Positions 8,271 to 34,298 of a stretch of 64,000 nucleotides of DNA are shown here, in pieces (the stretch's first letter is position 1; every line of letters starts with the position of its first letter). The notes under the pieces were generated by a model. It searched no databases and was not told the DNA's origin. It was given only the letters and a program-made list of their open reading frames with translations. Where the stretch lies: NCBI GenBank assembly GCA_001793155.1, contig MGHI01000020.1, positions 9,898-73,897 of the forward strand. Direction: 5' to 3'. The translations under genes were made by a program, and so were the position numbers. The DNA comes from Candidatus Woesebacteria bacterium RIFCSPLOWO2_01_FULL_39_61 (GTDB taxonomy: Bacteria > Patescibacteriota > Microgenomatia > UBA8517).

Positions 8271-9815
8271 ATGAAAAATATAATTTCAATAATTCTTTTT
8301 GCACTATTTTTATTTTTTATATTAGTTTTGGGATTGCGTGGTCTGCCGGGCAATCCGTCGAGTGTGGAAATTAATCAAGAAAGGTGGAAAGATGAGGGAC
8401 CATTGGAATTATCTCCCGAGAGAGGAAGATATGCTTTGACAATGTCCCTTATTGAAGACAAATCTTTTCATTTTTCTGTACCCATTGCGCGTTTCACAAC
8501 ACCAGATCTAGGTTACAAAAATGGAAAGTATGTATCACTTTTTGCTCCTGCAGTATCTTTCATTGTTATGCCCGGATATATTATTGGACAGTTTTTTGGT
8601 GCGTCACAACTGGGAGCATTCTTTATGATATTAATTTTTGCTTTAATTAATGCACTTTTGGTTCGATCAGTAGCAATTCATTTAGGTGCGAAAGCAAAAG
8701 CTGCAACTATTGCTTCATTATTATTTTTGTTTGCTTCACCTGCGTTTGCATACGCTGTTACCTTATATCAGCACCACATAACGACTTTTCTTATACTTTT
8801 TTCAATTTGGATATTGTTAAAATACAAGAATATTTTCTCTTTGGCTGTTGTCTGGTTTTTGTGTGCTTTATCAATACCGGTTGATTATCCGAATCTTTTT
8901 TTTATGCTGCCGATTGGTATATATGCCTTTGGTAGATTTTTTAATATAGATAAACTTCAAGAAACAGTAAAAATAAGAATTAAACCATTGGCATTTCTTA
9001 CTCTTGCAACCGTTTTAATTCCACTTGTATTTTTCTTATGGTTTAACAAGATGTCGTACGGCGATCCGTTACAGTTTTCAGGAACAGTAGCAAGCGTAAA
9101 AGCAATCGATGAACAAGGTAAATCTACAGTGCCGGGTAGAGCTGGTCAGGATAGGACGGAACAATTTATTAATCCTGATTTACAGAAGAAGTCATCCATT
9201 TTATTTTTCAGTACGAGAGAATTACCAAGCTTACTTTATATTCATTTATTTAGCCTCGACAGAGGAGTGTTGTTTTACACCCCCATTATGTTTTTTGGGA
9301 TAATAGGTATGTTTATTCTCTACAAAAGGAAAGAAAAGACAACTTCCCTGTTAGTGGCGATAATAGGTTTTAATATTTTCCTTTATGCAATGTTTGGCCA
9401 AGGCGGATGGGCATTCGGATCTCGTTACTTAATACCGAGTTACGCGATTCTTTCCATATTCATTGCTATAACCCTGACTCATTTAAGTAAGAAATTTTTA
9501 TTTGTAATACTGTTTTTGTTACTTTCAATTTATTCCGTTTCTGTTAATACTCTGGGGGCAGTTACAACCAATAGAAACCCCCCTAAAGTTGAAGCCGTTG
9601 CTTTGGAGAAAATATCAGGAAGAAAAGAATACTACACTTACCAGAGAAATTGGGAATATTTAAATAATCAAGGTTCTAAGTCATTTGTATTTCAAACATT
9701 TGCCAAGGATTATGTAACCGCGCCTCAATATTATTACTTTGTTGCAGGGTTGATAATTCTAGTTTTGGGCGGGCAAACAATCTTTTTGTACTTGAAGTCT
9801 AGAAAGGAAAAATAA
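8271..9815 (+). CDS. multi-pass membrane protein, putative GT-C-fold glycosyltransferase
   Basis: 514 aa, at least 10 hydrophobic helices, acidic first extracytoplasmic loop (..ERWKDEGPLELSPERGRY..); in a glycosylation operon. Confidence 0.35.
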   Translation: MKNIISIILFALFLFFILVLGLRGLPGNPSSVEINQERWKDEGPLELSPERGRYALTMSLIEDKSFHFSVPIARFTTPDLGYKNGKYVSLFAPAVSFIVMPGYIIGQFFGASQLGAFFMILIFALINALLVRSVAIHLGAKAKAATIASLLFLFASPAFAYAVTLYQHHITTFLILFSIWILLKYKNIFSLAVVWFLCALSIPVDYPNLFFMLPIGIYAFGRFFNIDKLQETVKIRIKPLAFLTLATVLIPLVFFLWFNKMSYGDPLQFSGTVASVKAIDEQGKSTVPGRAGQDRTEQFINPDLQKKSSILFFSTRELPSLLYIHLFSLDRGVLFYTPIMFFGIIGMFILYKRKEKTTSLLVAIIGFNIFLYAMFGQGGWAFGSRYLIPSYAILSIFIAITLTHLSKKFLFVILFLLLSIYSVSVNTLGAVTTNRNPPKVEAVALEKISGRKEYYTYQRNWEYLNNQGSKSFVFQTFAKDYVTAPQYYYFVAGLIILVLGGQTIFLYLKSRKEK

Positions 9816-9817
9816 AA

Positions 9818-11443
9818 ATGAAAATAAAAAATTTCACTATAAATTTTACAATTCAAAACCAAACTTTGGTAAAAGTTCAGAATTGGTTTGAGGAACACGC
9901 CTTAAGTTTAGTCGTCTTTGTTCTTACCGTGATTTCCGGACTTGTCTTTATTTATTACTACCTAAATGGTTTGGGACTTGCATACAACGATGCACGAAGT
10001 CATTTGGATATTGGGCGAAGGGTTGTAGAAGGATTAAAGCCGGGTCTTGCCCAGATCGGTTCTGTTTGGCTTCCTTTAAATCACATTTTAATGATTCCGA
10101 CGGTATGGAGTGATTTTATGTGGCATTCGGGATTGTCTGGAGCCCTGATATCAATGATTTCATTTGTTTTGACTGGGGTTATAGTCTACCTATTTTTAAA
10201 GAAGTTGGGGGTCGGACTCTTGGGCAGATTTTTTGGTGTTTTAGTATTTGCGGCAAATTTGAATATTTTATATTTACAGTCAACTGCGATGACGGAGTTA
10301 CTACTTATAGCGACGATGACTGCCGGGGCTTACTACCTCATGCTTTGGGCAAAAAAGGACACGGTTCTTGACCTTATTAAGGCAGCCTTTTGGATAATGA
10401 TGTCGACGACAGTCAGGTACGACGGCTGGTTTCTGCTATTATTTTCTGCCGGACTGGTTGCTTTAACCGTATTTTTTAAAAAGGGTTATAAAACAACCGA
10501 AGGGATGCTTGTTTTATTTTTGACTCTTGGAGGCTTCGGAATTGCTCTTTGGTTTTTATGGAACTTGGTCATTTTTAAGGATCCTTTATATTTTATTTTC
10601 GGTCCTTTTGCGGCCCACACGCAACAGGAACAATTGTCCGCTGCCGGTAATTTAGCCACTAAAGGAAACTTACTTTTATCGATTAAAGTATATCTTTACG
10701 CCTTGATTTACAACTCCTACGCTTACACCGCCATTGTGGGGTTTTTTGGAGCGATAGCATTATGGGTAAATAAAAAAATTAAGGGTGAGATAAGGGTGGC
10801 AAGCGTCGCTTTAACAACTCCGCTTCTATTTAACGTTATCGCTTTGTTTTTAGGATTTTCTGTACTTTTTATACAAGGTATAGCCGGAAACACTTGGTTT
10901 AATGTTCGCTACGGAATAATGCTTGCTCCCTCGATCGCGATATTTTCCGGTTATTTAGTAGATAAAGTTAAAGATTTAAGATGGATAATAATCGGTCTAT
11001 ATCTGTTTACCACATTTTTTGCATTCACCAGCGGAGATGCTGTAACAATCGACGATGCAAGGGTAGGGTCGAGCCAGAAAAACGTTACTGAGGTTTCTGG
11101 CTGGCTCAAAGCAAATACTTCCAATCGTGAAGGATTTGTTCTCATTTCAGCGGCAAGTCACGACGCAATAATCTTTTCCTCGGGACTTCCAATGAAAAAA
11201 TTTATTCACGAAGGAACTGGAGCGTATTGGCAGTCGGCGACAACGACACCCGATCACTGGGCTCGATGGATTGTGATGAGGACACACGATGACAACGATC
11301 TCGTGTGGAAAAGTGTCAGTCGTTCGGAGGGATTTATTAAGTACGACCTGGTAGACAGCTATCCTTTTGCTGATATATATGTATTAAAACAGGAAAATCT
11401 GCTTGATTTAAACACAAAGCCTGTATTTTCGAAACAAAAATAA
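9818..11443 (+). CDS. multi-pass membrane protein with C-terminal soluble domain, putative GT-C-fold
   Basis: 541 aa; N-terminal polytopic region (..AYNDARSHLDIGRR..), C-terminal ~150 aa hydrophilic. Confidence 0.35.
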   Translation: MKIKNFTINFTIQNQTLVKVQNWFEEHALSLVVFVLTVISGLVFIYYYLNGLGLAYNDARSHLDIGRRVVEGLKPGLAQIGSVWLPLNHILMIPTVWSDFMWHSGLSGALISMISFVLTGVIVYLFLKKLGVGLLGRFFGVLVFAANLNILYLQSTAMTELLLIATMTAGAYYLMLWAKKDTVLDLIKAAFWIMMSTTVRYDGWFLLLFSAGLVALTVFFKKGYKTTEGMLVLFLTLGGFGIALWFLWNLVIFKDPLYFIFGPFAAHTQQEQLSAAGNLATKGNLLLSIKVYLYALIYNSYAYTAIVGFFGAIALWVNKKIKGEIRVASVALTTPLLFNVIALFLGFSVLFIQGIAGNTWFNVRYGIMLAPSIAIFSGYLVDKVKDLRWIIIGLYLFTTFFAFTSGDAVTIDDARVGSSQKNVTEVSGWLKANTSNREGFVLISAASHDAIIFSSGLPMKKFIHEGTGAYWQSATTTPDHWARWIVMRTHDDNDLVWKSVSRSEGFIKYDLVDSYPFADIYVLKQENLLDLNTKPVFSKQK

Positions 11444-11461: not shown

Positions 11462-12715
11462 ATGAAAACAAAGCTATTTATAATTTTATTTATAATTATT
11501 CCTCTAGTATTAGGATTGAAGTTATTGGCAATAAGGGGGAAGTATTTGGGAACTAAGGCAAGCTCTACAAACTGGTGGGAAATTCAATCTATTGACACCG
11601 TTAAATACTCGCGTGATCTGGCTCGGGAAAAAGCGAAAGATTCATCGTTTGACGAAGTAATTGACACGCAAGTCAGATTGATTGCAGAAACAGGCGCAAC
11701 TCATGTTGCAGTAGGTACCCCTTATGCTGAGGAATTTGTGCCATTTTTGAAACGTTGGGTTTCAGCAGCGAGAAAATACGGACTGAAAGTTTGGTTCCGG
11801 GGAAATGTTCCGGGGTGGGAGAGATGGTTCGGTTATCCTAAGATTGATAGGAACGAACATACAAGCCTTGTCAGAGAATTTATTTTGGCAAACGGAGCAC
11901 TTTTTGAAGAAGGCGATATATTTTCTTCCTGTACTGAGTGCGAGAATGGCGGACCCGGAGATCCGAGAAGGTCGGGAGACGTTGCCGGGCATAGGAATTT
12001 CTTAACAGAGGAATATAAGATAACTAATGATGCATTCAGGAAAATCGGTAAAAATGTCCGGTCAAATTTTGCTCCGATGAACGGCGACGTTGCAGCACTT
12101 GTAATGGATGAGGAAACCACCAATTCTCTCGGAAATATAGTAGTTATTGATCACTATGTAGGATCAACCGAGAAATTGGCAAAGGATTTAAAAAATATTG
12201 CAGAAAAAAGTGGTGGCAAGGTTATTCTTGGGGAGTTTGGTGCCCCTATATCAAACATACACGCGAATTTTAATGAAGAAGAACAAGCAACCTGGATTAG
12301 ATTGGCATTAAGCGAAATATCCGACATACCTGAATTGATGGGTGTAAATTACTGGACAAGTTTTGGAGGAAGTACGAGGCTTTGGGATAGTGATTATAGG
12401 CCAAGAAAAGCTGTTGAAGTTATTCGTGGTTATTATAAACCAAGAGTAGTTGAAGGATTGGTAAGCGACGAACGCGGTAAGGCAGTCAAGAAAGCGGATG
12501 TTATAGTCGGTTCAAAACAATTGTTAACAACTAATAGCGGGATTTTTGTACTTCCTGTTAATTCTGAAAAAGTAACAATTACAATACAGGCGGACGGGTA
12601 TATTACTCAGCAATTAGAAATCGACAGCGAAAAAAACATAGAGATTATTCTTATTAAAGGTGAAGAAAATATTCTCTTTAAGATACAGAAGTTTATCTAC
12701 CAGATTACACATTAA
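11462..12715 (+). CDS. secreted/anchored glycoside-hydrolase-like protein with C-terminal Ig/CarbopepD_reg-like domain
   Basis: N-terminal signal/TM; ..ATHVAVGTPYAEEF..KVWFRGNVPGWERW..CTECENGGPGD.. looks like a TIM-barrel hydrolase; C-terminal ..ADVIVGSKQLLTTNSGIFVLPV.. beta-sandwich. Confidence 0.35.
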   Translation: MKTKLFIILFIIIPLVLGLKLLAIRGKYLGTKASSTNWWEIQSIDTVKYSRDLAREKAKDSSFDEVIDTQVRLIAETGATHVAVGTPYAEEFVPFLKRWVSAARKYGLKVWFRGNVPGWERWFGYPKIDRNEHTSLVREFILANGALFEEGDIFSSCTECENGGPGDPRRSGDVAGHRNFLTEEYKITNDAFRKIGKNVRSNFAPMNGDVAALVMDEETTNSLGNIVVIDHYVGSTEKLAKDLKNIAEKSGGKVILGEFGAPISNIHANFNEEEQATWIRLALSEISDIPELMGVNYWTSFGGSTRLWDSDYRPRKAVEVIRGYYKPRVVEGLVSDERGKAVKKADVIVGSKQLLTTNSGIFVLPVNSEKVTITIQADGYITQQLEIDSEKNIEIILIKGEENILFKIQKFIYQITH

Positions 12716-12733
12716 AACTTGCATTATAGGTCC

Positions 12734-12801
12734 TATAATGTTAGAATACAGACATTAAACTCCTGTCCCGTGTGAGATAGTCACTGAGTCATCTCACGGG
12801 A
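12734..12801 (+). promoter_or_regulatory. TATAAT -10 box (about 12734-12739) followed by a bulged 11-bp hairpin (about 12766-12801) in the leader of the sortase-substrate gene
   Basis: tcctATAATg, then TCCCGTGtgAGAT-12 nt loop-ATCTCACGGGA; no U-tract follows, so it is not a classical intrinsic terminator. Confidence 0.3.
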
Positions 12802-12853
12802 TCACGTTAGCTGTAAAAATGCTATCTAACTGTGATCCATCTGCCATCTAAAT

Positions 12854-13720
12854 ATGAAACTTGTTAAAAGAACCTTACTTTCCCTAATCCTTTTACTAGG
12901 CTTGCTTTCCTTTGCCTCTGAAGCTAACGCCCAAAGTGCTCCGCCTGAATTTCCCGCCTGTACTAATCCCGGAGGGACGTTAAGAATATCTTATGCCGAC
13001 GGAGAGCACGCAATAGTCGGGGAGAGCGGGCTTAGGGTCGGAGCCGACGCAGTTTACGATCTTGAAGGAGGAAACGTACAGCAATGTTTCTGTTCGGTGG
13101 ACGGAAGCGGTGTGCAGACAAATTGGTGGAAGATAAGTTCACTTGATCAGGATGAAATTGACACTTTGGTAAAATTAGGCTGGAACTTTGTTCCGAGCGG
13201 AACACCTTGGGGGTTGGATTCAAGCGCCTATATGGCAAAAAATGAAGCTTACGCCTGCGGAGGAGGATTTACTACCACGACCACATCATCCGGAAATCCC
13301 GGAGCACCGTCCTGCACAGCCGATAGGCCCTCATCCCCTCAGATTACTTCTATTGTCAGAAACGGTTCTTCCGCAACTATTTCCTGGACAAAGAGCGATA
13401 AAGCGACCCATTATACAATTGCCTACGGAACAGTAGTCGGAAACTATCCTTACGGAGTGCCCAATACAGGAAATGTAACTTCCTATACAATTAACGCGTT
13501 GGATCCTAACACTTTTTACTACTACGAAGTATATGCGGTCAACATTTGTATGCCATCGGAGCCGTCTTCGGGTGGTCAGGTTTTGGGAGCTCCAACAGGT
13601 GGTGTGCTTGGACTAGCTGCAACCGGAAACCTGGAATTAATTGTTGCATATCTTACTATCGGAGCGGCATCGATTATTGCAGGTATTCTTCTTAAGAAAA
13701 GATCAGACCGTAAGGCTTAA
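12854..13720 (+). CDS. secreted Cys-rich/FN3-domain surface protein with C-terminal LAATG sortase sorting signal
   Basis: Signal peptide MKLVKRTLLSLILLLGLLSFASEANA; FN3-like ..PQITSIVRNGSSATISWTKSDKATHYTIAYG..YYYEVYAVN; C-terminus LAATG + hydrophobic span + KKRSDRKA; GC content and GC3 visibly higher than flanking genes. Confidence 0.6.
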   Translation: MKLVKRTLLSLILLLGLLSFASEANAQSAPPEFPACTNPGGTLRISYADGEHAIVGESGLRVGADAVYDLEGGNVQQCFCSVDGSGVQTNWWKISSLDQDEIDTLVKLGWNFVPSGTPWGLDSSAYMAKNEAYACGGGFTTTTTSSGNPGAPSCTADRPSSPQITSIVRNGSSATISWTKSDKATHYTIAYGTVVGNYPYGVPNTGNVTSYTINALDPNTFYYYEVYAVNICMPSEPSSGGQVLGAPTGGVLGLAATGNLELIVAYLTIGAASIIAGILLKKRSDRKA

Positions 13721-13730
13721 CTTTTTCTTC

Positions 13731-14273
13731 ATGAGAAATTTGCTTGCCAATACCTTTATCACCTTAGGAATAGTATTAATTATAATTGCAGGACTTTTGC
13801 TTTGGCAGAGGTATAATCCCCAAAGACTTGCTTTTTCCGACGTAGGTAACGAAATTAGTGAATCAATAAATGAAGAAAAGAATCTTCCTGTTGCATTAAA
13901 AATAGAAGATTTGGATATAAAGCTTCCGGTATTTCCCGCCAGAAGCCAAACGGGGAAATGGGAAACGACTACAAAGGGTGTTTCCTATCTGGTTTCATCC
14001 GCAATGCCGGGACAGGTTGGAAACAGTATATTTTACGGTCACAACTATAAAAATATTTTGGGGAATTTAAAAAATGCAAAACCAGGTCAGATTATTGAGG
14101 TAAAACTGGCAAACGGGGTTTGGAGAAAATTCAGAATTGAGTATGTTCAGACAGTTGCCCCCAACCAAACCGGAATATTGGATCAGACAGATGATAAGAG
14201 GCTAACCCTCTATACCTGCACCGGATTTTTAGACTCCAAAAGATTAGTTGTTACCGCCCTCTTCACACCTTAG
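13731..14273 (+). CDS. sortase (class E-like)
   Basis: Start at the internal ATG 13731, after the upstream stop; N-terminal TM anchor; catalytic Cys in ..RLTLYTCTGF.. (TLxTC), His in ..IFYGHNY.., Arg in ..KRLVVTA.. Confidence 0.75.
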   Translation: MRNLLANTFITLGIVLIIIAGLLLWQRYNPQRLAFSDVGNEISESINEEKNLPVALKIEDLDIKLPVFPARSQTGKWETTTKGVSYLVSSAMPGQVGNSIFYGHNYKNILGNLKNAKPGQIIEVKLANGVWRKFRIEYVQTVAPNQTGILDQTDDKRLTLYTCTGFLDSKRLVVTALFTP

Positions 14274-14280
14274 AGGTGAA
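14262..14280. repeat. REP-like palindrome (CACCT-TAG-AGGTG core) overlapping the sortase stop codon
   Basis: Perfect 5-bp stem with 3-nt loop and extended arms; the sortase TAG stop is the loop. Confidence 0.55.
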
Positions 14281-14334
14281 AAGGTATTTACACCCTGGGT
14301 AATTTAACATAATCTATATTTAGAGGAAAATCAT

Positions 14335-15009
14335 TTGCCAGGTAGGAAAATTCCACTCGTAAATGGTGAGATATACCATGTAATTAACCGTGGTATTGCT
14401 TCAAGACCCCTTTTTTTAATTAAAAGGGATTATAGGCGAAAACTTTCAACAATATTTTATTATCAGAATGTAAATTTACCTTTCAGATATTCATTCTTCA
14501 TTCGCTTACCGAGAGATAGGAGGCAAGTTATTCTAGACGGATTTAAAGATAAAAGAAATTTTCAAGTCGAAATAATAGCTTATTGTTTAATACCGAATCA
14601 TATACATTTACTATTGAAACAGGTAAGAGATAAAGGAATCTCAACTTTTATGAGTAATGTTACCAACAGTTATACCCGTTATCTTAATTCAAAAAGGCAT
14701 GAGATAGGTCCGATTTATCAAGGAAAATTTAAAGCTGTACGGATAGAAAGCGACGAACAGCTCTTACATGTCCAAAGGTACATACATCTTAACCCTTTCA
14801 GTTCATATGTATTAAAAAGTACGGAAGAGCTTGAGGGTTACCCTTATTCTTCCCTCCCAGAATATTTGAATAAGACTGTCTATGGATATTGTAAAAAAGA
14901 TATAGTTATGCACTTTTTTAAAGATAAAGTCACTTTTAGAGATTTTATTCTGAATCAAGCGGATTACCAAAGGAATCTTGACGAAATTAAACACTTAACC
15001 TTAGAATGA
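14335..15009 (+). CDS. REP-associated tyrosine transposase / IS200-like (Transposase_17, COG1943)
   Basis: TTG start; ..GEIYHVINRGIA..AYCLIPNHIHLLL (HuH) ..LHVQRYIHLNP..YPYSSL.. typical of RayT/IS200 Y1 transposases. Confidence 0.75.
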   Translation: MPGRKIPLVNGEIYHVINRGIASRPLFLIKRDYRRKLSTIFYYQNVNLPFRYSFFIRLPRDRRQVILDGFKDKRNFQVEIIAYCLIPNHIHLLLKQVRDKGISTFMSNVTNSYTRYLNSKRHEIGPIYQGKFKAVRIESDEQLLHVQRYIHLNPFSSYVLKSTEELEGYPYSSLPEYLNKTVYGYCKKDIVMHFFKDKVTFRDFILNQADYQRNLDEIKHLTLE

Positions 15010-15018
15010 CAGTTTTCC

Positions 15019-15048
15019 GAGGTGTGAAGCTATTTCACCTCTAAGGTG
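15019..15048. repeat. REP-like nested palindromes (GAGGTGTGAA..TTTCACCTC and CACCT-CTA-AGGTG)
   Basis: Inverted copy of the upstream element, directly after the transposase stop. Confidence 0.55.
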
Positions 15049-24851: not shown

Positions 24852-25562
24852 ATGGCTTATTTACTTAAAGAACTATCGGTTTTTTTCCCGGTATATAACT
24901 TAGAAGCCCAGATTAAGGACACACTTGTTAATGCACTTGAGACGATTCCTAATTTGGCTGAAAAATACGAAATTATCGTAGTCAACGACGGGAGTTATGA
25001 TAGAACGGGCGAAATCCTATCCGAAATTGCTAAGAAAAATACAAATATACGAATAATTACCCACAAAAATAATCGCGGGTATGGAGGGGCATTAAAATCA
25101 GGGTTTTATGGTTCCAAATATGAATGGATTGCGTTTACCGATGCCGACGGACAGTTTGACATTTCCGAACTTCCTAACTTGATTAATTTACAGAAGCGAA
25201 CCAAGGCAGATTTGGTTGTCGGATACTATATGAAAAGAGCCGTTAAGTTTTACAGAAAAGTAAACACTTGGCTTTGGCAGCTTGTTGTGAGAATACTTTT
25301 CGGATTAAACGTAAAGGATATTGATTGCGGTTTTAAGTTAATTTCAAAAAAGGTACTCTCCGGAATTGACCCACTGGAGTCGGAAAGGGGAGCCTTTGTT
25401 TCGAGCGAATTTTTAATTAAGGCGCAAAAAGCAGGATTTAAGATAGTGGAAATAGGAGTCCATCATTATCCCAGAACCGAAGGAAGGGGAACCGGAGCGG
25501 ATTTAAATGTAATAATCAGGAGCTTTATTGACCTTTTCAAATTATGGAAAAAACTCAGATGA
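24852..25562 (+). CDS. polyprenol-phosphate sugar synthase-type GT2 (DPM1-like)
   Basis: ..FPVYNLEAQI..IVVNDGSYDRTGEIL..FTDADGQFD..DCGFKLISKK.. DPM1/GtrB-type motifs, 236 aa soluble. Confidence 0.75.
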   Translation: MAYLLKELSVFFPVYNLEAQIKDTLVNALETIPNLAEKYEIIVVNDGSYDRTGEILSEIAKKNTNIRIITHKNNRGYGGALKSGFYGSKYEWIAFTDADGQFDISELPNLINLQKRTKADLVVGYYMKRAVKFYRKVNTWLWQLVVRILFGLNVKDIDCGFKLISKKVLSGIDPLESERGAFVSSEFLIKAQKAGFKIVEIGVHHYPRTEGRGTGADLNVIIRSFIDLFKLWKKLR

Positions 25563-25566
25563 AGAT

Positions 25567-27177
25567 ATGTTATCGTACCTTAGTAAATTGATTAATAAGA
25601 TAAGGCTTTGGATTAAAGATAATCCCAGAGAGGCTTTTTTGATTTTTATAATTCTTCTTATTGGAGCTTCTTTCAGGCTTTATAGGATCGGTGAGTATAT
25701 GATTTTTTTGGGCGATGAGGGGAGAGATGCAATTGTCGTGAGGCGTCTTTTGGTGAATTTTGATCCGATACTTATTGGACCTGGAACTTCTATAGGCAAC
25801 ATGTACCTGGGGCCTTTGTATTACTATATGATCGCTCCGGCACTTTTACTCGCTAATTTTTCACCGGTGGGGCCGTCGGTTTTGGTAACCCTTTTTGGAA
25901 TTGCAACTATATTTTTGGTTTGGATGATGGGACGCGAGTGGTTTGGAAATACCGCCGGAATGATAGCCTCGTTTTTTTATTCGATAGCGCCAGTAGTTAT
26001 TACTTTTTCAAAGTCTTCCTGGAACCCTAATATAATGCCTTTTTTTGCTCTGATATCCATATATTCGATTTGGAGAGTTTGGCAATACAAAGAATTTAAG
26101 TGGCTTTTTGCACTTGGAGTATTTTTCGCAATTATTCTTCAATCGCATTATTTAGGTCTGCTTTTAGCTCCCACACTTGGACTATTCTGGGTTTTAACTT
26201 ATTTAAAAAATAGAAAATCAAGTTCTGAAATTAAGAATTTTACAAAATATTCCATATTGGGTATCGGAACTTTTGCTATTCTTATGTCTCCGTTGGTAAT
26301 TTTTGATGCCCGGCACGAATGGCGCAATTTCGGGGCGATAAAATTATTTTTCTTAGAGAGACAAACGACTGTGTCAGCGCGTCCCTGGAGCGGAATTTCA
26401 AAAATACCTGAATTGATCGACCAGGTAAATTTATCTCTCCTTAGTTCACAAAACGCGGATATATCCTGGATTTACACTTATCTTTTTTACCCAGGATTTA
26501 TTGTATTATTCTTATTTATTCTTTTGAAAAGTACCCGGAAGATTTCCCCGGATAAGAAATCTTGGTTAAATATTTTTAAAAAACTAGATTCAAAATACGT
26601 GGCCTCTTACTTTTTACTCGTTGCATGGCTTGGCGTATCTTTTGTAGGCTTATCTTTGTACAAACAACACATATACGACCACTACTATGGTTTTTTCTTT
26701 CCGGCACCCTTTTTATTGGCCGGAGCAGTGAGTCAATATGTAGTTAAAAACTCCAGCCGGTTGGTTAAAATAACACTAGCTGTATTTTTGATATATGCAG
26801 TCTATATAAATTTATCCAATAGCCCAATAAAATACTCACCGAATAGACAAATGCAGAGGGCGGTTGGTGTTGCCAGGGAAATCCAAAAACAGGCAAACGG
26901 TGAGAAATTTAATCTCGCAGTACTGGCTGAGCGAAATTATGAAGACGGATACCAATATTTTTTGGAAAAATGGGGTGAGCCGGTTTACGATATTGACCCC
27001 TTAAAACTCGAGGAAACTTTGGCAAGTCAACTTTTTGTCGTTTGCGAAATGCCGAAGGAAAAATGCGATCCAACCCATAGCCCAAAAGCAGAAGTAGCAA
27101 ATTTCGGCTGGAGCAAGATTGAAGAAGAATGGGAAGTTAACGGAGTAACTGTCTATAAATTAATCCACGCGCAATGA
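25567..27177 (+). CDS. GT-C-fold membrane glycosyltransferase, ArnT/PMT (GT39/GT83)-like, paralog A
   Basis: Start at the internal ATG just after the upstream stop; ..RLYRIGEYMIFLGDEGRDAIVVRR..GPLYYYMIAP.. with about 11 TM; C-terminal Cys-containing soluble domain. Confidence 0.65.
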   Translation: MLSYLSKLINKIRLWIKDNPREAFLIFIILLIGASFRLYRIGEYMIFLGDEGRDAIVVRRLLVNFDPILIGPGTSIGNMYLGPLYYYMIAPALLLANFSPVGPSVLVTLFGIATIFLVWMMGREWFGNTAGMIASFFYSIAPVVITFSKSSWNPNIMPFFALISIYSIWRVWQYKEFKWLFALGVFFAIILQSHYLGLLLAPTLGLFWVLTYLKNRKSSSEIKNFTKYSILGIGTFAILMSPLVIFDARHEWRNFGAIKLFFLERQTTVSARPWSGISKIPELIDQVNLSLLSSQNADISWIYTYLFYPGFIVLFLFILLKSTRKISPDKKSWLNIFKKLDSKYVASYFLLVAWLGVSFVGLSLYKQHIYDHYYGFFFPAPFLLAGAVSQYVVKNSSRLVKITLAVFLIYAVYINLSNSPIKYSPNRQMQRAVGVAREIQKQANGEKFNLAVLAERNYEDGYQYFLEKWGEPVYDIDPLKLEETLASQLFVVCEMPKEKCDPTHSPKAEVANFGWSKIEEEWEVNGVTVYKLIHAQ

Positions 27178-28707: not shown

Positions 28708-30261
28708 GTGAAGTCTAAGTTTGCAGGTCTGCAAAAAAAATTTACTAATTGGCGAAAAAGTTTTGGTGTGGAAATAAATTCTCATCTGGCTTTGTACATT
28801 ATATTGGTATTTATATTTATCACCGCCTTTTTTGTCAGAGTTTATAGGGTCGGGGATTTGATGTGGTTTTATTACGATCAAGGCAGGGACGCACTCAGGA
28901 TTTGGGAATTTTGGCATCAGGGAAAACCATTTTTGGTTGGACCAGTCACCGGTTTGGCCGGAATATTTTTGGGACCATTCTATTATTATTTGATAGCCCC
29001 CTTTTATTTATTGGGGGGAGGGAATCCAGTATACCCGGCGGTATTTTTAGCATTTCTTTCGACAATCGCTCTGGCCCCCCTTTATATTTTGGGCTGGAAG
29101 ATGCACTCCAGGGCGACGGGACTTATTGCCACTATTATCGTCGGATTTTCCTATTATCTTGTTCTTGCCGGGAGATGGTTAGCTAATCCCACACCAATTC
29201 TTTTAACCAGCATACTGCTTTTGTTTTCAATGTGGAGAATAAGTCTCGGAAAAAATAAATATTGGTGGCTAGTTATAACCTTACTTATCGGAATTTCGCT
29301 GCAGCTTGAGGCGGCTAGTGCGGTCTTTTATCTTCCGATGATTCTGATTTTCGCTGTTTGGCAAAGAAAAAACTTACCTAATGTCAAAACCGCTGTTGTT
29401 TTGGGAATTCTTTTTTTGGTTACACTTTTACCCCAAATTGTATTTGATTTTCGGCACGAACATATATTATTAAATAATTTCAAAAGAGTTTTATTAGAGG
29501 AAAAAAGTTTCAGGACACCTTTATACAGTGTTTTGGATACCCGTCTCAGGTATTTTTGGAATGTTTACAATTCAAAGATATTTCCCGGAAGAGAGGGTTA
29601 TGCGAAACTTTTCACAACCGTATCTTTAATTGCGCTGATTTCTTCGTTTAAAAAAAAGAAAACGCCGTTAACGTTGCTAATAATTTTTCTAGGGATTCCA
29701 ATGTTGGGTTACATCTTTTTCCAGGGTAATTTCGGAAATATTTATGACTATTACATGACTGGATATTTTTTACCGATGATGCTACTTCTATCTTTGGGTT
29801 TTGGAATTTTGTGGGAAGATAAGCTGGGAAAAATTGCAGTCACAGCTTTTTTTGTCTTATTTCTAATGATAAACGTTACGAATTTAAAGAATTATTTAAT
29901 TGCCGGAGTTGATGGGCCCACACACATAACTCTGGGGAATGAGAAACAAGCGGTCAATTGGATCTTTGATGACGCTGGAAAAAAGAGATTGCAAGAGTTT
30001 AATGTTGAAACATATGTCCCGCCTGTTATCTCTCACTCATACGACTATCTTTATTTGTGGTTGGGTACCAAAAGGTGCGGAAAAGGTTTATGCGGACTGG
30101 TAAAAGATCGAAATACAGAGATTTTTTATGCCCTGTACGAAGTAGATCCACCTCACCCTGAAAGACTGGCAGAATGGTTGGGTAGATACGGGAATAGCAC
30201 CATTATTGAAGAACAAGAAAAGTTTGGAGGAATTACTGTCGAGCGGAGAAAAAGAATTTAG
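28708..30261 (+). CDS. GT-C-fold membrane glycosyltransferase, ArnT/PMT-like, paralog B
   Basis: ..RVYRVGDLMWFYYDQGRDALRIWEF..GPFYYYLIAPFYLL.. clearly paralogous to 25567 and 32817; DE becomes DQ in the loop motif. Confidence 0.6.
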   Translation: MKSKFAGLQKKFTNWRKSFGVEINSHLALYIILVFIFITAFFVRVYRVGDLMWFYYDQGRDALRIWEFWHQGKPFLVGPVTGLAGIFLGPFYYYLIAPFYLLGGGNPVYPAVFLAFLSTIALAPLYILGWKMHSRATGLIATIIVGFSYYLVLAGRWLANPTPILLTSILLLFSMWRISLGKNKYWWLVITLLIGISLQLEAASAVFYLPMILIFAVWQRKNLPNVKTAVVLGILFLVTLLPQIVFDFRHEHILLNNFKRVLLEEKSFRTPLYSVLDTRLRYFWNVYNSKIFPGREGYAKLFTTVSLIALISSFKKKKTPLTLLIIFLGIPMLGYIFFQGNFGNIYDYYMTGYFLPMMLLLSLGFGILWEDKLGKIAVTAFFVLFLMINVTNLKNYLIAGVDGPTHITLGNEKQAVNWIFDDAGKKRLQEFNVETYVPPVISHSYDYLYLWLGTKRCGKGLCGLVKDRNTEIFYALYEVDPPHPERLAEWLGRYGNSTIIEEQEKFGGITVERRKRI

Positions 30262-30364: not shown

Positions 30365-32725
30365 TTATATGTCATCCTCCTTAGTGGACGCTCCGCATTG
30401 AAATGCGGCGTGGATATCATCATTAAATTTTTCAATATATTCCGGTCGCATCAAAGTCGAGTTATTTCTAAAGGTTCTTAACAAAAAGTATTCTGTTATT
30501 GGCCTGTCGTCGGAAACTGCTTCTGCTCCATCGACAAATTTGCTGATAACCTCTCTGTCGCCCAAAATCCTTTCGCATATGCTTTCTATCGTAATAAGAG
30601 GAATGTTAATTTTTATCGTTCCATCTAAAAGTGTTTTGTTATTATCTGCATAAACTATTGGGTCTGTGAGTTTCACGGCAATTATTTTTTGATCAAAAGG
30701 GATGGGTTTTTCGCTTCCGATCAAATAGAAACCGCTAGTAATCACCGAGTTAATAGCAAGAACATTCGGAAACTCATCAATAAAACTTCTAAAAAGATGA
30801 GTAAAATCATCAACTGATGCACCGGTATAAAACCAGGCGACAAATAATCCGCCGTCGTTTAAAATTCTTTTACTATCGTGATAAAACTCTCTCGAATACA
30901 AAACCGTTGTTCCTGCTGCATTTACAGGGGGAGGAGGGTCAACCACGATAATGTCATATTTTTCCTTGGTTGTACGGGCATAATTTCTCCCATCGTCAAT
31001 AAAAATTCTTCCGCGGGGATTAGTAAGTACTGTCTCAGCATCAGCGTGGAAAAGATGAAACATTTTGGGTACCGAGGGAACAAGATCTACTGCATCAACT
31101 GAGAGATTAGGATGAATAAGTGCCGAGCGGTAGGTCCCCCCCATACCAAAAGCAATAACAAGCATCTTTTGAGGATTCGGGTGTATCGAAATTGGCAAAT
31201 GTGCCAGAAGCGTAGTATCCGGACCGGGAGAGGTTGTCTGAACTCCGTCGATAAGCAATGCTTTATCAGTTCCTCCTATTTGGCTATAACCCAAAACAGT
31301 TGCAACTTCATCTTCTAAGAACATTTCTTCATAGTTACCCCGTTCCCGAATCACTTGAATCCTTTGTTTGATTTTTGCACTTTGGAGAGTAAGGGGGTCC
31401 AACTTTATAAGCCAATAGGAAAATACAATTAGAATAGCTAAAGACACGACTGAAATTTTCTGTAAAGATCTAGAAATGATATTGTCACTTAAAGTAAGTA
31501 TGAGTGCCAGTACAAAATTAAAAATTCCTAAAATAACAATTCCTTTTATTGTCCCAAAGATCGGTATGACCAAATAAGCGGCGGCAACAGAACCAAATAT
31601 TGACCCGATAGTGTTCCCGGCATACGAAATCCCGACAGTCTCGCCGATTTTTTTCTTCTTGGAAAAATATTTAATAACAACAGGAAACGTCATACCCATT
31701 AAGAGGGTTCCCGGAATAATCGTTAAAAACACTTTTATCAGAGTGGGAATATTTATAAAGTTTGAATTTACGAGAATCGATGCAATTGCCGACAGTCCGA
31801 TTCCTGCCTCAAATAATCCGAATATAAAAACAGGACTTTTACTCTTTTCAAATAAAAATTCAAATAAATAACTTCCTATTGCAATACCCAATAAATAAAC
31901 ACTTAAAACGCCGGCAAAAGCGTAAATAAAGGTTCCTGTGGATGGCGTCAAAAGCCGTGTCCACAAAACCTCGTAGCATAAGGAAATGAGGCCCGATGCT
32001 CCGAAAGCAACTAAAACAAGTCTGTCCTTATTCGTAAAATCTATTTTATCAACTAGTTTGGGGGGTGTTTCTTTTCGATACACCGGTACAAAAAATCTAC
32101 TTTTCGAGAGTGTTACGATAACAATAGAAATGAGTATATTTATGCTTACGGATAAAATTAAGGATAGCTTCAAACCCAGAATTTCTATTAAGAAATAGGC
32201 AGTCAGTATGGTTCCAACTACTGCTCCGAGCGTATTTATTGCATAGAGGCGGCTTGTGGCAGAGACAAGTTTCTTGTCACGTTTGGCGAAAAAAGTAATT
32301 AATGTAGGCAAAGTGCCTCCCATTGCAACCGTCGCCGGCAAGATTGCTAAGGATGCGAGAATAAACTTATAAGCTAGCACGAGCTGTAATGAATTTGAAA
32401 AAAGTGAATGAGTACTCTTGTAAATATCTCTAATTGCGGGAAACATAAATAAAGTAGAAAAAGAAAAGATACCTATTAAAAACTCCAGGACTCCATAAAC
32501 TAAAAGTAGGTTTTTCGCCCTGTCAGAAAATTTACCAATTAGATAACTCCCGAGTGCTAGTCCAGCCATGAATGACGCTAAAACCGCGACAGTAGAGTGA
32601 GTGGTGCTTCCGAAGATAACCAGTAGTTGACGAATCCAAACAACTTGGTAAACAAGACCTGTCCCACCGGATGCAAAGAATATGATGTACATTGTAAAGG
32701 TCAGGGTTTTATTTTTTTTCACCAT
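30365..32725 (-). CDS. fused MFS-like transporter / spermidine synthase-like domain protein
   Basis: 786 aa; about 12 TM N-terminal half, then ..VIAFGMGGTYRSAL..VDAVDLVP..IIVVDPPPP.. (SpeE-like class I MTase fold). Confidence 0.7.
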   Translation of the reverse strand: MVKKNKTLTFTMYIIFFASGGTGLVYQVVWIRQLLVIFGSTTHSTVAVLASFMAGLALGSYLIGKFSDRAKNLLLVYGVLEFLIGIFSFSTLFMFPAIRDIYKSTHSLFSNSLQLVLAYKFILASLAILPATVAMGGTLPTLITFFAKRDKKLVSATSRLYAINTLGAVVGTILTAYFLIEILGLKLSLILSVSINILISIVIVTLSKSRFFVPVYRKETPPKLVDKIDFTNKDRLVLVAFGASGLISLCYEVLWTRLLTPSTGTFIYAFAGVLSVYLLGIAIGSYLFEFLFEKSKSPVFIFGLFEAGIGLSAIASILVNSNFINIPTLIKVFLTIIPGTLLMGMTFPVVIKYFSKKKKIGETVGISYAGNTIGSIFGSVAAAYLVIPIFGTIKGIVILGIFNFVLALILTLSDNIISRSLQKISVVSLAILIVFSYWLIKLDPLTLQSAKIKQRIQVIRERGNYEEMFLEDEVATVLGYSQIGGTDKALLIDGVQTTSPGPDTTLLAHLPISIHPNPQKMLVIAFGMGGTYRSALIHPNLSVDAVDLVPSVPKMFHLFHADAETVLTNPRGRIFIDDGRNYARTTKEKYDIIVVDPPPPVNAAGTTVLYSREFYHDSKRILNDGGLFVAWFYTGASVDDFTHLFRSFIDEFPNVLAINSVITSGFYLIGSEKPIPFDQKIIAVKLTDPIVYADNNKTLLDGTIKINIPLITIESICERILGDREVISKFVDGAEAVSDDRPITEYFLLRTFRNNSTLMRPEYIEKFNDDIHAAFQCGASTKEDDI

Positions 32726-32816
32726 ACAAAGAATATCACAAAATCTAAACCAGCTATATCAGTTCATTGAATCAGTTCACGTTTGGTGTAAAAATAGATT
32801 ATATCAACCGAAAAAA

Positions 32817-34298
32817 ATGAAAATTAGATACGACCTAAGAAGGAATTGTCTTATTTTAATTATCTTAATTTTAGGACTATTTTTGAGACTTTATAAGGCA
32901 CAAGAATTATTTTTATACGGCCACGATCATGATCTTGCCGGGTGGTTTGTTAGAGACGTAGTAGAAAACATGCACTTTCGTTTAATAGGCCAAGAAACTT
33001 CAACACAAGGAATTTTTATAGGGCCAGTTTACTACTATTTGTTGGTTCCTTTTTACCTTTTATCAGGAATGGACCCGATAGGAGGAGTTATTTTAGTGAC
33101 GTTTTTGGGCCTTATTAGTATCTGGAGTGTTTACTGGATTTTTTCAAAAATTTTTGACAAAAACACTGGATTAATCGGTGCATTTATTTACGCTACTTCT
33201 TTCTATTTAGTTTTTAACGACAGGGAAGTTGTTCCGACAATGCCTGTAATACTATGGACTTTATGGCTTTTGTATGCTATCCACTTATTATTAAAAAGAA
33301 ACATAGGGCGTGGACTTATCTTGTCGGGAATTTTAATCGGGTTAATTTGGAATTTAAATTTTGCTCTCATACTTACCGTTCCACTTTTGGTGGTTGCGCT
33401 CTTGTTGCAAGGGAAAAAGTTCGATAAGTTCGTAATTATTCCCGGTGCTTTAACCCTTTTAGGTACCTTACTACCCTTATTGCTTTTTGAAGTAAAACAC
33501 GGATTTATCCAGACAAAGGCTTTTTTTGTCGCCCTCACAACTCCGCAGCGTGATATTTTTTCCGGTTCGGAAAAGTTGCAAAGAGTGATCCACCTCGCAA
33601 GCAAAAACATTTCGGGATTCCTGTGGGGTGATGTTGGGATAAATTACACTTGGGCGGCAATCACAATTCTTCTTATATTCTTATTCTTGACAATTAAGAA
33701 AATAATAAAAAGAGAGTGGATAATTCTGTTTTCCCTTTGGATCATCACCTACGTAGTATTTTTTTCTTTGTATTCAAAGGCGGTTTCCGAGTATTACCTA
33801 AACGGAATTACCGTTATTTGGATTACGCTACTCTCACTTTTCCTGTCTTATCTTTTTTCACTTAAAAAATATAAAATACTTGGGATCATATGCTTGAGTA
33901 TTTTTCTTATATCTAATGTATATCGCATTTTAAGTGTACACGTAAATAAAAGTGGTTACGTCTATAGAAAAGAGCTGGTAAAAGAAATAAAAGCCGATGC
34001 CCGACTTCATAGTTATCCCTGTGTTGCGGTTTCTTATATTACAAATCCCGGATATGACTTAGGATATAGATACTTTTTCTACTTAGAAAATATGCATGTA
34101 AATAAACCTAATTCAGGAAGTCCAGTATATACTATTGTTTTTCCCCTTAACGAAAACCTTTTTCCGGCTGGTAAAACATTTGGCGCATTAGGATTAATTT
34201 ATCCGGATTATGGAAAGTATGATGGCGGTCAAGTTACAATAAGCTGTTCCGGTGCGAATTCCAATTTAACAGATCCTATGTTCGGGTTCACAAAATAA
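32817..34298 (+). CDS. GT-C-fold membrane glycosyltransferase, ArnT/PMT-like, paralog C
   Basis: Start at the internal Met (MKIRYDL..) to avoid overlap with the divergent gene; ..RLYKAQELFLYGHDHDLAGWFVRD..GPVYYYLLVPFYLL.. Confidence 0.6.
   Translation: MKIRYDLRRNCLILIILILGLFLRLYKAQELFLYGHDHDLAGWFVRDVVENMHFRLIGQETSTQGIFIGPVYYYLLVPFYLLSGMDPIGGVILVTFLGLISIWSVYWIFSKIFDKNTGLIGAFIYATSFYLVFNDREVVPTMPVILWTLWLLYAIHLLLKRNIGRGLILSGILIGLIWNLNFALILTVPLLVVALLLQGKKFDKFVIIPGALTLLGTLLPLLLFEVKHGFIQTKAFFVALTTPQRDIFSGSEKLQRVIHLASKNISGFLWGDVGINYTWAAITILLIFLFLTIKKIIKREWIILFSLWIITYVVFFSLYSKAVSEYYLNGITVIWITLLSLFLSYLFSLKKYKILGIICLSIFLISNVYRILSVHVNKSGYVYRKELVKEIKADARLHSYPCVAVSYITNPGYDLGYRYFFYLENMHVNKPNSGSPVYTIVFPLNENLFPAGKTFGALGLIYPDYGKYDGGQVTISCSGANSNLTDPMFGFTK

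Follow-up and report, generated by a model that had tools for sequence, protein, structure and literature searches.

We found that a bona fide sortase gene in a Candidatus Woesebacteria genome adjoins the gene for a surface protein that is probably its anchoring target, and that the two genes are native to the lineage, not foreign DNA, and part of an ancient module that has stayed beside sugar-transfer genes throughout a group of ultra-small bacteria from groundwater. We consider it likely that the sortase and the surface protein (the cargo) form a dedicated, vertically inherited pair that is a trait of the Microgenomates (Microgenomatia) and makes up the last two genes of a five-gene envelope cluster. 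The analysis was centered on a 64-kb stretch of that genome (the window; Table 1). An initial annotation of the window had described a sortase with an adjacent LAxTG-tailed substrate, and both genes and the signal were confirmed here.

We compared the locus with its counterparts at 78 species-level Microgenomates loci, the assessable subset varying from one neighboring gene to the next. Residue conservation in the cargo and the sortase was judged on 68 homologs of each, and the three proteins encoded upstream (of 514, 541 and 417 aa, the last called p417) were compared over 35 orthologs each. The window alone served as the reference for codon usage and GC3. A Candidatus Woesebacteria protein matches the cargo at 100% identity, and among 255 cargo and 395 sortase homologs, all of those with a source name came from Microgenomates or Patescibacteria. 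No copy of the pair was found in the plasmids and phages searched, and we did not find the family described in the literature on sortase substrates of CPR bacteria/Patescibacteria or on LAxTG.

Table 1. Features of the sortase-cargo locus and its surroundings (positions in the window; residue numbers are those of the protein named).
Feature	Position	Strand	Evidence
514-aa polytopic membrane protein, GT-C-like paralog 1, first gene of the cluster	8271..9815	+	NCBIfam, hhalign
541-aa polytopic membrane protein, GT-C-like paralog 2	9818..11443	+	relatives pass PMT_2
p417, 417 aa: N-terminal membrane anchor, glycoside-hydrolase-like core, CarboxypepD_reg beta-sandwich	11462..12715	+	Pfam, hhalign
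Promoter-like site, TTAAAA-16-TATAAT	12712..12739	+	consensus scan, 10/12 matches; weak
Two adjacent hairpins, putative 5' leader of the cargo gene	12771..12838	+	RNA fold
Cargo ORF	12854..13720	+	288 aa, secreted
Cargo signal peptide, residues 1-26, MKLVKR...ANA/QS	12854..12931	+	read from sequence, model helix
Cargo N-domain, residues 27-140	12932..13273	+	invariant columns, AlphaFold model
Cargo FN3 domain, about residues 154-239	13313..13570	+	Pfam fn3, Foldseek
LAATG sorting motif, residues 254-258, inside VLGLAATGN	13613..13627	+	conservation
Hydrophobic span (259-280) and basic tail KKRSDRKA (281-288)	13628..13717	+	sequence reading; model helix 260-287
Sortase, 180 aa, N-terminal membrane anchor	13731..14273	+	Pfam Sortase, invariant triad
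Sortase catalytic residues H104, C163 (in TLYTC), R171	14040-14042, 14217-14219, 14241-14243	+	alignment
Y1/RAYT-like transposase	14335-15009		Pfam Y1_Tnp

The cargo has the architecture of a small secreted protein. Its N-terminus reads as a signal-like segment with a basic start, a hydrophobic core and a putative cleavage site, a pattern that recurs in the 68 homologs; the structure model places a helix at residues 2-24, in keeping with the signal peptide proposed in the initial annotation. The domain that follows is the core of the cargo family and is common to its long and short forms. It was originally described as having six cysteines. Four invariant cysteines (C36, C78, C80 and C135) lie in the N-domain, and two more (C154 and C232, also invariant) bracket the FN3 domain. 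The N-domain also has a conserved Trp cluster (QTNWWK, GW and WGL). It was modeled by AlphaFold with a pLDDT of 93 and a pTM of 0.86. A Foldseek search of the PDB with the N-domain gave nothing at E ≤ 0.001 (best E 0.5, TM ≤ 0.38), and there was no match to it in Pfam or NCBIfam; as modeled, the core domain is without a solved structural relative.

The FN3-like repeat that had been read from the sequence was borne out. Residues 162-239 match Pfam fn3 (E 2e-10; 41.1 bits against a cutoff of 25), the region was modeled with pLDDT > 90, and Foldseek returned FN3 structures at TM 0.69-0.76 (for example 3mpc, TM 0.76, rmsd 2.0). FN3 was seen at 20 of the 78 species-level loci and is therefore accessory to the cargo family. 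The extra FN3 is a feature of the Woese- and Amesbacteria cargo.

The cargo ends in the tripartite sorting signal reported initially, LAATG followed by a 22-residue hydrophobic span and KKRSDRKA. This was the sole signal of its kind among the 172 ORFs of at least 50 aa scanned in the window, and it is conserved in the homologs: T257 and G258 were invariant, V251, L252, G253, L254 and A255 were at least 90% conserved, and the extended form (V/I)LGLAxTG is kept across the family. A motif of the [LF]AxTG type was present at 75 of the 78 loci. Cleavage is predicted between T257 and G258 because of the chemistry of sortases. At two Daviesbacteria loci, the LAxTG signal is replaced by SISLPKTGA, and the sortase beside that cargo belongs to another clade (27% identity, with TLMTCTPPG). 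The motif and the enzyme were swapped together, which represents one evolutionary event in two related Daviesbacteria genomes. We infer that the sortase processes the LAATG cargo because the genes are adjacent and because motif and enzyme changed together.

The enzyme itself belongs to the sortase superfamily (PF04203 / MEROPS C60). It scored 82.1 bits against Pfam Sortase PF04203 (cutoff 26.6) and 44.3 bits against TIGR01076 (cutoff 39.35), its His, Cys and Arg were invariant in the 68 homologs, and a hydrophobic segment at about residues 8-25, read from the sequence, provides the N-terminal anchor. The TLxTC active site given in the initial annotation reads TLYTC, and its Cys belongs to the invariant triad. 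Translation most likely starts at the ATG at 13731 and not at the TTG at 13641, which overlaps the cargo gene, because the homologs align from that Met, which is also the start in two of three gene calls.

Judged by sequence comparison, the sortase is not the class E enzyme first proposed; it appears to belong to a distinct clade outside classes A-F, set apart by class-model scores and alignment. None of the class models came near its cutoff. Of the five models of classes A-F that matched, the class E one (NF033747, cutoff 160) had the lowest score, 29.3 bits; 56 of the 68 family members matched it at E ≤ 0.001 (best E 6.5e-13). The best PDB relatives, with E values of 1e-9 to 1e-11, belong to classes A, C and D; the class E structure 5utt reached 6e-4. 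Compared with class A, class E sortases have an insertion of about 21 residues in the beta6/beta7 loop. This insertion is absent here, the sortase aligning to S. aureus SrtA with gaps of 1-3 residues, and the His-to-Cys spacing is 59 residues, shorter than in both S. aureus SrtA (64) and SrtE1 (69). Class E enzymes also have a conserved Tyr in the S3 subsite of the beta3/beta4 loop, Tyr229 of SrtE1 (PMC5148588). By sequence alignment, this site (A104 in S. aureus SrtA, F92 in C. perfringens SrtD) corresponds to Leu87, which is invariant in the family; the residue before it varies among Y, F and W.

There are real similarities to class E, whose substrates carry Ala at P3 (PMC5148588). Like SrtE1 and SrtE2 of S. 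coelicolor, which act on LAXTG chaplins (PMC5148588), the pair described here has a signal with Ala, not Pro, at P3 and with its scissile bond between Thr and Gly, and it has a membrane-anchored enzyme with a His/Cys/Arg triad and a short Cys-to-Arg spacing (8 here, 9 in SrtE1). The differences, besides the model score, Leu87 and the missing loop insertion, are that this sortase is without a long cytoplasmic N-terminal extension, that it occurs in CPR bacteria, and that the signal is extended upstream to (V/I)LG-LAxTG. Since Ala at P3 would be read without the class E Tyr, the likeness to class E would therefore be convergent.

In minimal size of the catalytic domain and in aligning without large insertions, the enzyme resembles class A. 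The top PDB sequence matches were SrtA of S. aureus and B. anthracis (1ija, E 2e-9; 2kw8, E 3e-11), but these matches are weak, about 40-46 bits. Class A also differs in its Cys-to-Arg spacing, in its motif (LPxTG, compared to the LAxTG inferred here), and in serving many dispersed substrates, whereas the sortase here lies beside a single one. The pairing of one sortase with one adjacent cargo, and the covariation of motif and enzyme between loci, are shared with the dedicated pairs of class D/F and B. anthracis SrtC. Unlike those, the pair described here has a cargo domain without a solved or annotated relative and is embedded, lineage-wide in the Microgenomates, in a cluster with two GT-C-like proteins and a glycosidase-like protein.

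The cluster consists, in order, of the genes for the two GT-C-like membrane proteins, the glycosidase-like p417, the cargo and the sortase. The 514-aa and 541-aa proteins of the window had no significant Pfam match, and their assignment as GT-C-like comes from sequence relatives and a profile-profile match. The 514-aa protein matched the NCBIfam LA_3751/LA_3752 putative glycosyltransferase below cutoff (E 3.5e-14), and Pfam PMT_2 matched 4 of its 35 orthologs (best E 5e-6). Its family and that of the 541-aa protein are distant paralogs (hhalign 88%, E 3e-6). The 541-aa protein is the most conserved product of the cluster, with a mean column identity of 65% over 35 orthologs and an invariant YNDARSH...GRRVVE near its N-terminus. 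Full-length relatives of it (35-43% identity) pass the PMT_2 gathering score (30-35 bits against 26.1) and occur fused to GT2, GH5 or p417-like domains. The upstream proteins resemble GT-C enzymes of the PMT_2/ArnT/PMT type with partner hydrolases in that they are polytopic, conserve an acidic motif close to the first loop, and have relatives that pass PMT_2 and occur in fusions with GT2 or GH5-type domains; they differ in that the window's own proteins fall below the Pfam thresholds.

The assignment of p417 as a hydrolase comes from one fused relative and from reading of its motifs. Its family profile matched P0371, a fusion protein, over residues 526-876 (hhalign E 8e-83), a region that carries Pfam Glyco_hydro_cc above cutoff, and two motifs, E159-C-E161-N-G-G and G-E258-F-G-A-P, were invariant. 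We suggest that p417 has a TIM barrel with Glu as the putative catalytic residue. Residues 330-385 form a CarboxypepD_reg domain, found in 23 of the 35 orthologs. The GH5 domain of P0370 had no detectable homology to p417. The link of the cluster to GT-C and glycosidase families was obtained through distant fused relatives; Pfam scans of the three upstream families gave sporadic weak matches, and searches of PDB sequences with their profiles gave nothing usable. One match in these searches, to FliY (E 0.006), was judged spurious.

Gene order around the pair is widely but incompletely conserved. The sortase gene lies immediately downstream of the cargo gene at 71 of 75 assessable loci, and p417 immediately upstream at 54 of 70. 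The 541-aa and 514-aa genes were found upstream at 44 and 42 of 55 assessable loci, respectively, and all three upstream genes were present at 39 of the 55. The order is kept across Woese-, Ames-, Roizman-, Levy-, Davies-, Shapiro- and Chisholmbacteria, and genes called independently in four divergent genomes form the same cluster. Extra sortases at other loci each lie beside their own substrate. In one MAG (CAZVJU010000001.1), cargo and sortase appear as a single in-frame ORF. The nearest relatives were the same for all five genes of the cluster. Sortase distances correlated with those of the 541-aa protein and of p417 (Mantel p 0.001), pairwise correlations between cluster genes were weak (rho 0.0-0.4), and the correlation between cargo and 541-aa distances was not significant. 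Congruence of distance matrices is weakly informative here because the divergences are saturated.

The base composition of the cargo gene had been taken as a sign of foreign origin. It is indeed GC-richer than its neighbors and ranks first in GC among the 52 long ORFs scored (0.471, compared to 0.369 for the window). The further claim, that its codons end preferentially in G or C, did not hold. GC3 was 0.401, within the range of the window (0.24-0.42) and close to the expected 0.364 (z 1.33, rank 13 of 53), codon fit was typical (z -0.17, rank 25 of 53), and the excess sits in GC2 (0.516) and GC1. The GC content expected from the protein sequence and the codon usage of the window was 0.459, and 0.473 was observed. 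The high GC is due to the amino-acid content of the protein, in which Gly, Ala, Ser, Thr and Pro abound. Because the cargo gene is GC-richer than its own locus in 76 of 78 genomes, the excess is a trait of the protein family.

The Y1/RAYT-like gene begins 62 nt downstream of the sortase gene. It scored 38.8 bits against Pfam Y1_Tnp (cutoff 23) and 50.6 bits, below the cutoff of 80, against NCBIfam REP_Tyr_transpos. Two perfect 16-nt hairpin-bearing inverted copies flank it (14266-14281 and 15033-15048); no further copies of this repeat were found within the 64 kb. Such a gene lies close downstream at 3 of the 78 loci, and the RAYTs near other loci are without such inverted repeats. The transposase neighbor noted in the initial annotation is a separate unit and is not evidence that the pair is mobile. 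We rejected it as a vehicle for the pair, since the inverted repeats enclose the RAYT alone and are lacking from RAYTs near other loci.

In the mechanism that we propose, the cargo would be exported via Sec, and its C-terminal hydrophobic span and basic tail would keep it in the membrane. The membrane-anchored sortase, using H104, C163 and R171, would recognize (V/I)LGLAxTG, cut between Thr257 and Gly258 to give a thioacyl intermediate, and pass the cargo to an amine of the envelope, most likely in a peptidoglycan precursor, which is the presumed acceptor. The outcome would be surface display of a small disulfide-stabilized domain on a stalk rich in Gly, Ser and Thr. Judging from synteny, an extracytoplasmic glycan is probably the partner of the cargo, which would either accept it (on its Ser/Thr stalk) or bind it (through its Trp-rich N-domain), because the pair is co-inherited with two GT-C-type paralogs and a glycosidase-like protein. 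The same gene order makes a functional link of the pair to the surrounding glycosylation genes plausible. A more specific version is doubtful and is put forward tentatively: that this is a Microgenomates-specific module in which the GT-Cs and the glycosidase-like enzyme make or trim an extracytoplasmic glycan, and a sortase outside classes A-F, having come to read Ala at P3 independently of class E, installs a cargo of new fold that carries or binds that glycan.

Three other explanations were weighed against the dedicated, vertically inherited pair. The initial annotation favored a horizontally acquired cassette of an actinobacterial-type class E sortase and its LAxTG substrate, brought in next to a RAYT and inserted in a glycosylation island. 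The idea fits the Ala at P3, which class E substrates also have (PMC5148588), the top-ranking GC content of the cargo gene and the transposase next door. Nearly everything else speaks against it, and we consider it very improbable: codon usage is native and GC3 ordinary, the GC excess recurs at 76 of 78 orthologous loci, the five-gene synteny is lineage-wide with congruent nearest relatives, the class E model is the weakest and 5utt a far poorer match than structures of classes A, C and D, the Tyr of class E is replaced by Leu87, the RAYT is enclosed by inverted repeats of its own and at most loci is missing from that position, and the plasmid and phage searches were negative.

It also seems quite unlikely that the enzyme is a class C-like pilus or fiber sortase that polymerizes the cargo head-to-tail via a lysine nucleophile instead of anchoring it singly. 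Class C is among the best PDB and NCBIfam matches, the cargo is small and disulfide-bonded with an Ig-like FN3, and CPR bacteria build unusual pili (bioRxiv 10.64898/2026.03.03.709456). However, there is no invariant Lys among the 68 cargo homologs, so no pilin-motif lysine is evident, FN3 is missing from most family members, and each cluster has a single substrate and a single sortase, with no tip or base pilins. [quoted passage not shown] Somewhat less improbable, though still unlikely, is that the sortase acts on the cargo without attaching it to peptidoglycan, either releasing it (by hydrolysis or shedding) or passing it on to a glycan or a glycolipid that the neighboring GT-C and glycosidase-like proteins produce. 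The synteny with two GT-C-like proteins and one glycosidase-like protein is in its favor. Against it, no gene for an amino sugar or amine donor was identified in the cluster, and all characterized sortases, to our knowledge, use peptide or amine nucleophiles.

Few surface-protein gene sets in the sampled loci are as widely conserved as this module. Microgenomates are uncultured, ultra-small bacteria that are probably attached to other cells, and we know of almost no experimental work on their cell envelope. If the tentative version with a glycan-linked cargo of new fold is correct, the module would be an undescribed, lineage-defining surface structure of these bacteria. The conserved linkage of the cargo domain to GT-C genes suggests a role in a CPR-specific surface glycan. 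The enzyme would represent a further sortase clade, one whose signal has no proline and which might be useful for ligation orthogonal to LPXTG enzymes, and would offer a second, independent solution to the recognition of Ala at P3. For annotation, the locus illustrates that a gene can be fully native despite being GC-rich within an AT-rich genome, if Gly, Ala, Ser, Thr and Pro abound in its product.

The spacer ahead of the cargo gene is 138 nt long. Promoter-like matches in it were, overall, not enriched over shuffles. We considered a riboswitch or leader RNA and dropped the idea, because the hairpins had no Rfam match (nor did a scan of the whole window give one) and the leader is not conserved at related loci. 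The predicted fold of the segment that contains the two hairpins (12716-12860) has an energy of -35.8 kcal/mol, with a z of -3.35 compared to shuffles.

The window encodes an LAATG-tailed surface protein (the cargo) that matches, at 100% identity, a hypothetical protein of Candidatus Woesebacteria bacterium RIFCSPLOWO2_01_FULL_39_61, a member of the Microgenomates group of the CPR/Patescibacteria. The cargo, encoded beside the sortase gene (coordinates in the table), begins with a signal-peptide-like segment (MKLVKR, a hydrophobic core and ANA|QS), followed by a domain of ~110 residues (the N-domain) in which four cysteines (C36, C78, C80, C135) are invariant and a Trp cluster is conserved, a Thr/Ser/Gly linker, and an FN3 domain (Pfam E 2e-10) between the invariant C154 and C232. 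After a Gly-rich segment, it ends in a sorting signal made up of LAATG (residues 254-258), a 22-residue hydrophobic span and KKRSDRKA. This tripartite signal occurred once among the 172 ORFs of ≥50 aa in the window, and the association of sortase and cargo is therefore real and not a chance pattern. AlphaFold modelled the full cargo confidently (pLDDT 84.8), and the N-domain alone gave a pLDDT of 93 and a pTM of 0.86; the modelled FN3 region resembled solved FN3 domains.

Coordinates of the five-gene cluster and related features (window positions unless a locus, L0xx, is named)
Feature	Position	Remark
514-aa protein gene	8271-9815	
541-aa protein gene	9818-11443	
417-aa protein gene	11462-12715	
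Spacer (138 nt)	12716-12853	Promoter-like TTAAAA-16-TATAAT; two stable hairpins (fold z -3.35)
Cargo gene	12854-13720	288 residues
GQVLGAST-like segment	13565-13612	
Sortase gene	13731-14273	180 residues
Left repeat arm	14266-14281	Overlaps sortase stop codon
Transposase ORF	14335-15009	
Right repeat arm	15033-15048	
Further PMT_2/PTPS_related/Polysacc_synt_3 genes	25528-27177, 28708-30261, 32682-34298, 35040-36638, 41760-45079, 46420-47919	
Daviesbacteria variant pairs	L060:449-1611; L071:7902-9063	Cargo tail SISLPKTGA
Cargo-sortase single ORF	L028:7938-9179	MAG CAZVJU010000001.1
Second sortase, substrate signal QVLGLSATA	L026:14600-15792	
Second sortase, substrate signal GASTMAGTG	L070:9120-10818	

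We scanned one genome per species and recovered 80 loci from Woese-, Ames-, Roizman-, Levy-, Davies-, Shapiro- and Chisholmbacteria and WWE3. The FN3-bearing form of the cargo was present at 20 of 78 species-level loci; at the other 58 a shorter protein (~190-230 aa) joins the N-domain to the signal through a low-complexity Ser/Thr/Gly stalk. The restriction of FN3 to 20 loci indicates that the N-domain is the conserved core and FN3 a lineage-specific addition. Across homologues the conserved signal is longer than the pentapeptide: it reads (V/I)LGLAxTG, with N, D or T as the next residue. Its T257 and G258 never vary, V251, L252, G253, L254 and A255 each reach ≥90% conservation, and position x is taken by T, A, S, N, D, G, F or Y. 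No invariant lysine was found in the aligned cargo homologues, which argues against pilin-type polymerisation. Just before VLGLAxTG, many cargo proteins have a GQVLGAST-like segment, once or twice, as if the signal had been partly duplicated. Some species have ASTFAGTG or STGFAPTG as the signal.

The sortase gene begins at an ATG 10 nt past the cargo stop codon. Its product has an N-terminal membrane anchor and a Pfam score of 82 bits, and H104, C163 (within TLYTC) and R171 are invariant in 68 homologues. The initial annotation was correct in placing a TLxTC sortase next to the LAATG protein. A longer reading frame that opens at 13641 would overlap the cargo gene, and the alignment of homologues gives it no support.

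The enzyme had been likened to class E sortases, which its signal resembles in having Ala at P3. The class E model scored 29.3 bits (cutoff 160), less than the other four class models (A-F) with a match, and the best E-values of the 68 family members to any class model were ~1e-12 to 1e-14. Compared with solved structures, the family profile matched class A, C and D entries at E 1e-9 to 1e-11, and matched 5utt, which we take to be the class E SrtA of Actinomyces oris, only at E 6e-4. The Ala preference of class E has been proposed to stem from an S3-subsite residue, Tyr229 in SrtE1, which corresponds to F92 of C. perfringens SrtD (PMC5148588). By sequence alignment, this site is an invariant Leu87 in the window sortase family, preceded by a variable residue (Y, F or W). 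In S. aureus SrtA, the position is reportedly A104 (Dorr et al.). The spacing from His to Cys is 59 residues, compared to 69 in SrtE1, so the class E beta6/beta7 insertion is absent. By model score, profile match to solved structures, Tyr site and loop spacing, the sortase is not a member of class E. It is best described, judging from its sequence, as a separate CPR sortase clade with a signal that probably resembles that of class E by convergence.

The cargo gene had also been read as compositionally foreign, with G/C-ending codons, and the pair as a horizontally acquired cassette. The cargo gene does have the highest GC among the long ORFs of the window (0.471; window, 36.9%). The excess lies at codon positions 2 (0.516) and 1 (0.495), and GC3 (0.401) is within the range of the window (0.24-0.42). 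[quoted passage not shown] Expected GC was 0.459 (observed 0.473) and expected GC3 was 0.364 (z = 1.33, rank 13 of 53). In an amino-acid-conditioned simulation the codon fit of the cargo was unexceptional (z -0.17, rank 25 of 53), and the sortase scored +1.42. Gly (11.5% vs 6.3%), Ala, Ser, Thr and Pro are frequent in the cargo, and Lys, Ile and Phe are scarce. The cargo gene is GC-richer than its surroundings in 76 of the 78 orthologous loci of other species (mean +0.040), so the excess characterises the protein family and is no sign of transfer.

Distribution and gene order also contradict recent acquisition. A large protein collection contained 255 cargo and 395 sortase homologues, many on shared contigs, and all those with a source name came from Woese-, Ames-, Roizman- or Gottesmanbacteria or other Patescibacteria. 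Gene calls at four divergent cargo homologues (43-54% identity; one locus partial) gave a common order: membrane proteins of ~500 and ~530 aa, a ~420-aa protein, cargo and sortase. We then called ORFs in the scan loci and searched them with the window proteins, counting assessable loci. The sortase was immediately downstream of the cargo in 71/75 loci and the 417-aa protein immediately upstream in 54/70; 541-like and 514-like proteins were upstream in 44/55 and 42/55, respectively, and all three upstream genes were present in 39/55. All five window genes have their nearest relatives in the same loci (L008, L028, L029, L031). Sortase distances correlated with those of the 541-aa and 417-aa proteins (Mantel p 0.001); other correlations within the cluster were weak because divergence is saturated. 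Our search found no cargo copies on plasmids or phages. Together with the native codon usage, this shared history leaves little room for a cassette of recent origin.

Nor does the neighbouring transposase mark one. The gene does adjoin the pair; it encodes a Y1 transposase domain that matches the NCBIfam RAYT model below cutoff. It is enclosed by its own perfect 16-nt inverted repeat, CACCTTAGAGGTGAAA, each arm of which forms a small (5-bp) hairpin, and there are no copies in the window other than these two arms. The unit lies between the 3' ends of the sortase gene and a convergent PNPOx gene, and a RAYT-like gene is found within 1.5 kb downstream in only 3 of 78 loci. It stands as an insertion of its own next to the pair and is not the pair's carrier. 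RAYT-like genes near the sortase in three other loci (L012, L059, L035) lack flanking repeats of the window type. On the other side of the pair, the spacer before the cargo matched nothing in Rfam, and related loci do not conserve it.

Two of the upstream genes encode polytopic membrane proteins, of 514 and 541 aa, that are distantly paralogous to each other (hhalign 88%, E 3e-6). Neither had a significant Pfam match, and the 514-aa protein matched an NCBIfam 'putative glycosyltransferase' family below cutoff. An exhaustive search with the 541-aa protein yielded ~2060 representative clusters; among the fused relatives scanned against Pfam, those at 33-43% identity passed the PMT_2 gathering score. 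Fusions in this family (P0370, P0371, P0416, P0455, P0465, P0502) add GT2, GH5 cellulase or 417-aa-like domains. In P0371 the added domain is a homologue of the 417-aa protein (hhalign E 8e-83) with Pfam matches to Glyco_hydro_cc and CarboxypepD_reg, a Rosetta-stone link that ties the 541-aa and 417-aa proteins functionally. The 417-aa protein has invariant E-C-E-N-G-G and G-E-F-G-A-P motifs, and the data support a membrane-anchored, extracytoplasmic enzyme of probable glycosidase-like activity. The window also contains at least five further PMT_2-type GT-C paralogues, a Polysacc_synt_3 flippase-like gene, one further PTPS_related membrane protein (of the two ORFs with a PTPS_related match, one also matches PMT_2) and five GT2 genes upstream of the cluster. 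This envelope glycosylation gene set is unusually dense for a small genome. Given the many GT2 and PMT_2-type genes, 'glycosylation island' is a fair description, although the pair is a conserved part of the island and was not inserted into it.

Variation among loci bears on the pairing of enzyme and substrate. At two Daviesbacteria loci, the same cargo N-domain has a different tail, and the sortase is of another clade (27% identical to the window enzyme; FLFSHS...TLMTCTPPG; best match, class C model). Motif and enzyme appear to have been swapped jointly in one evolutionary event, the co-variation expected of a cognate pair. At L028, a short-form cargo and the sortase occupy one 413-aa ORF with no stop between them (...ILGLAATGD...KKKTQRVN-MRSISKFF...TLYTCTGF). 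The predicted membrane topology is consistent with such a fusion; the ORF may reflect either a genuine fusion or a fault in sequencing or assembly. Second sortases at L026 and L070 each lie beside their own variant-signal substrate, which suggests that a one-sortase-one-cargo pattern is general in Microgenomates.

We propose that Sec would export the cargo and that the C-terminal span would keep it in the membrane. The adjacent sortase would recognise (V/I)LGLAxTG, presumably cleave between T257 and G258, and pass the cargo to an amine in the envelope, most likely that of a peptidoglycan precursor. A flexible Ser/Thr/Gly stalk would then display the N-domain, together with FN3 where present. 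Given its conserved linkage to two putative GT-C enzymes and a glycosidase-like protein, the cargo may be glycosylated on its stalk, or may bind the glycan that these proteins would make. Sortases in Microgenomates were already known at the level of family presence; our literature search found no description of their substrates, the (V/I)LGLAxTG signal, the cargo family or the five-gene cluster. The module is more conserved than first thought, and offers a better experimental way into the CPR envelope. Many TPA MAGs with this Microgenomates-specific cluster (L009, L014, L015, L018, L023 and others) are titled 'uncultured Gammaproteobacteria', 'Pseudomonadales' or 'Weeksellaceae', and are probably mislabelled records.
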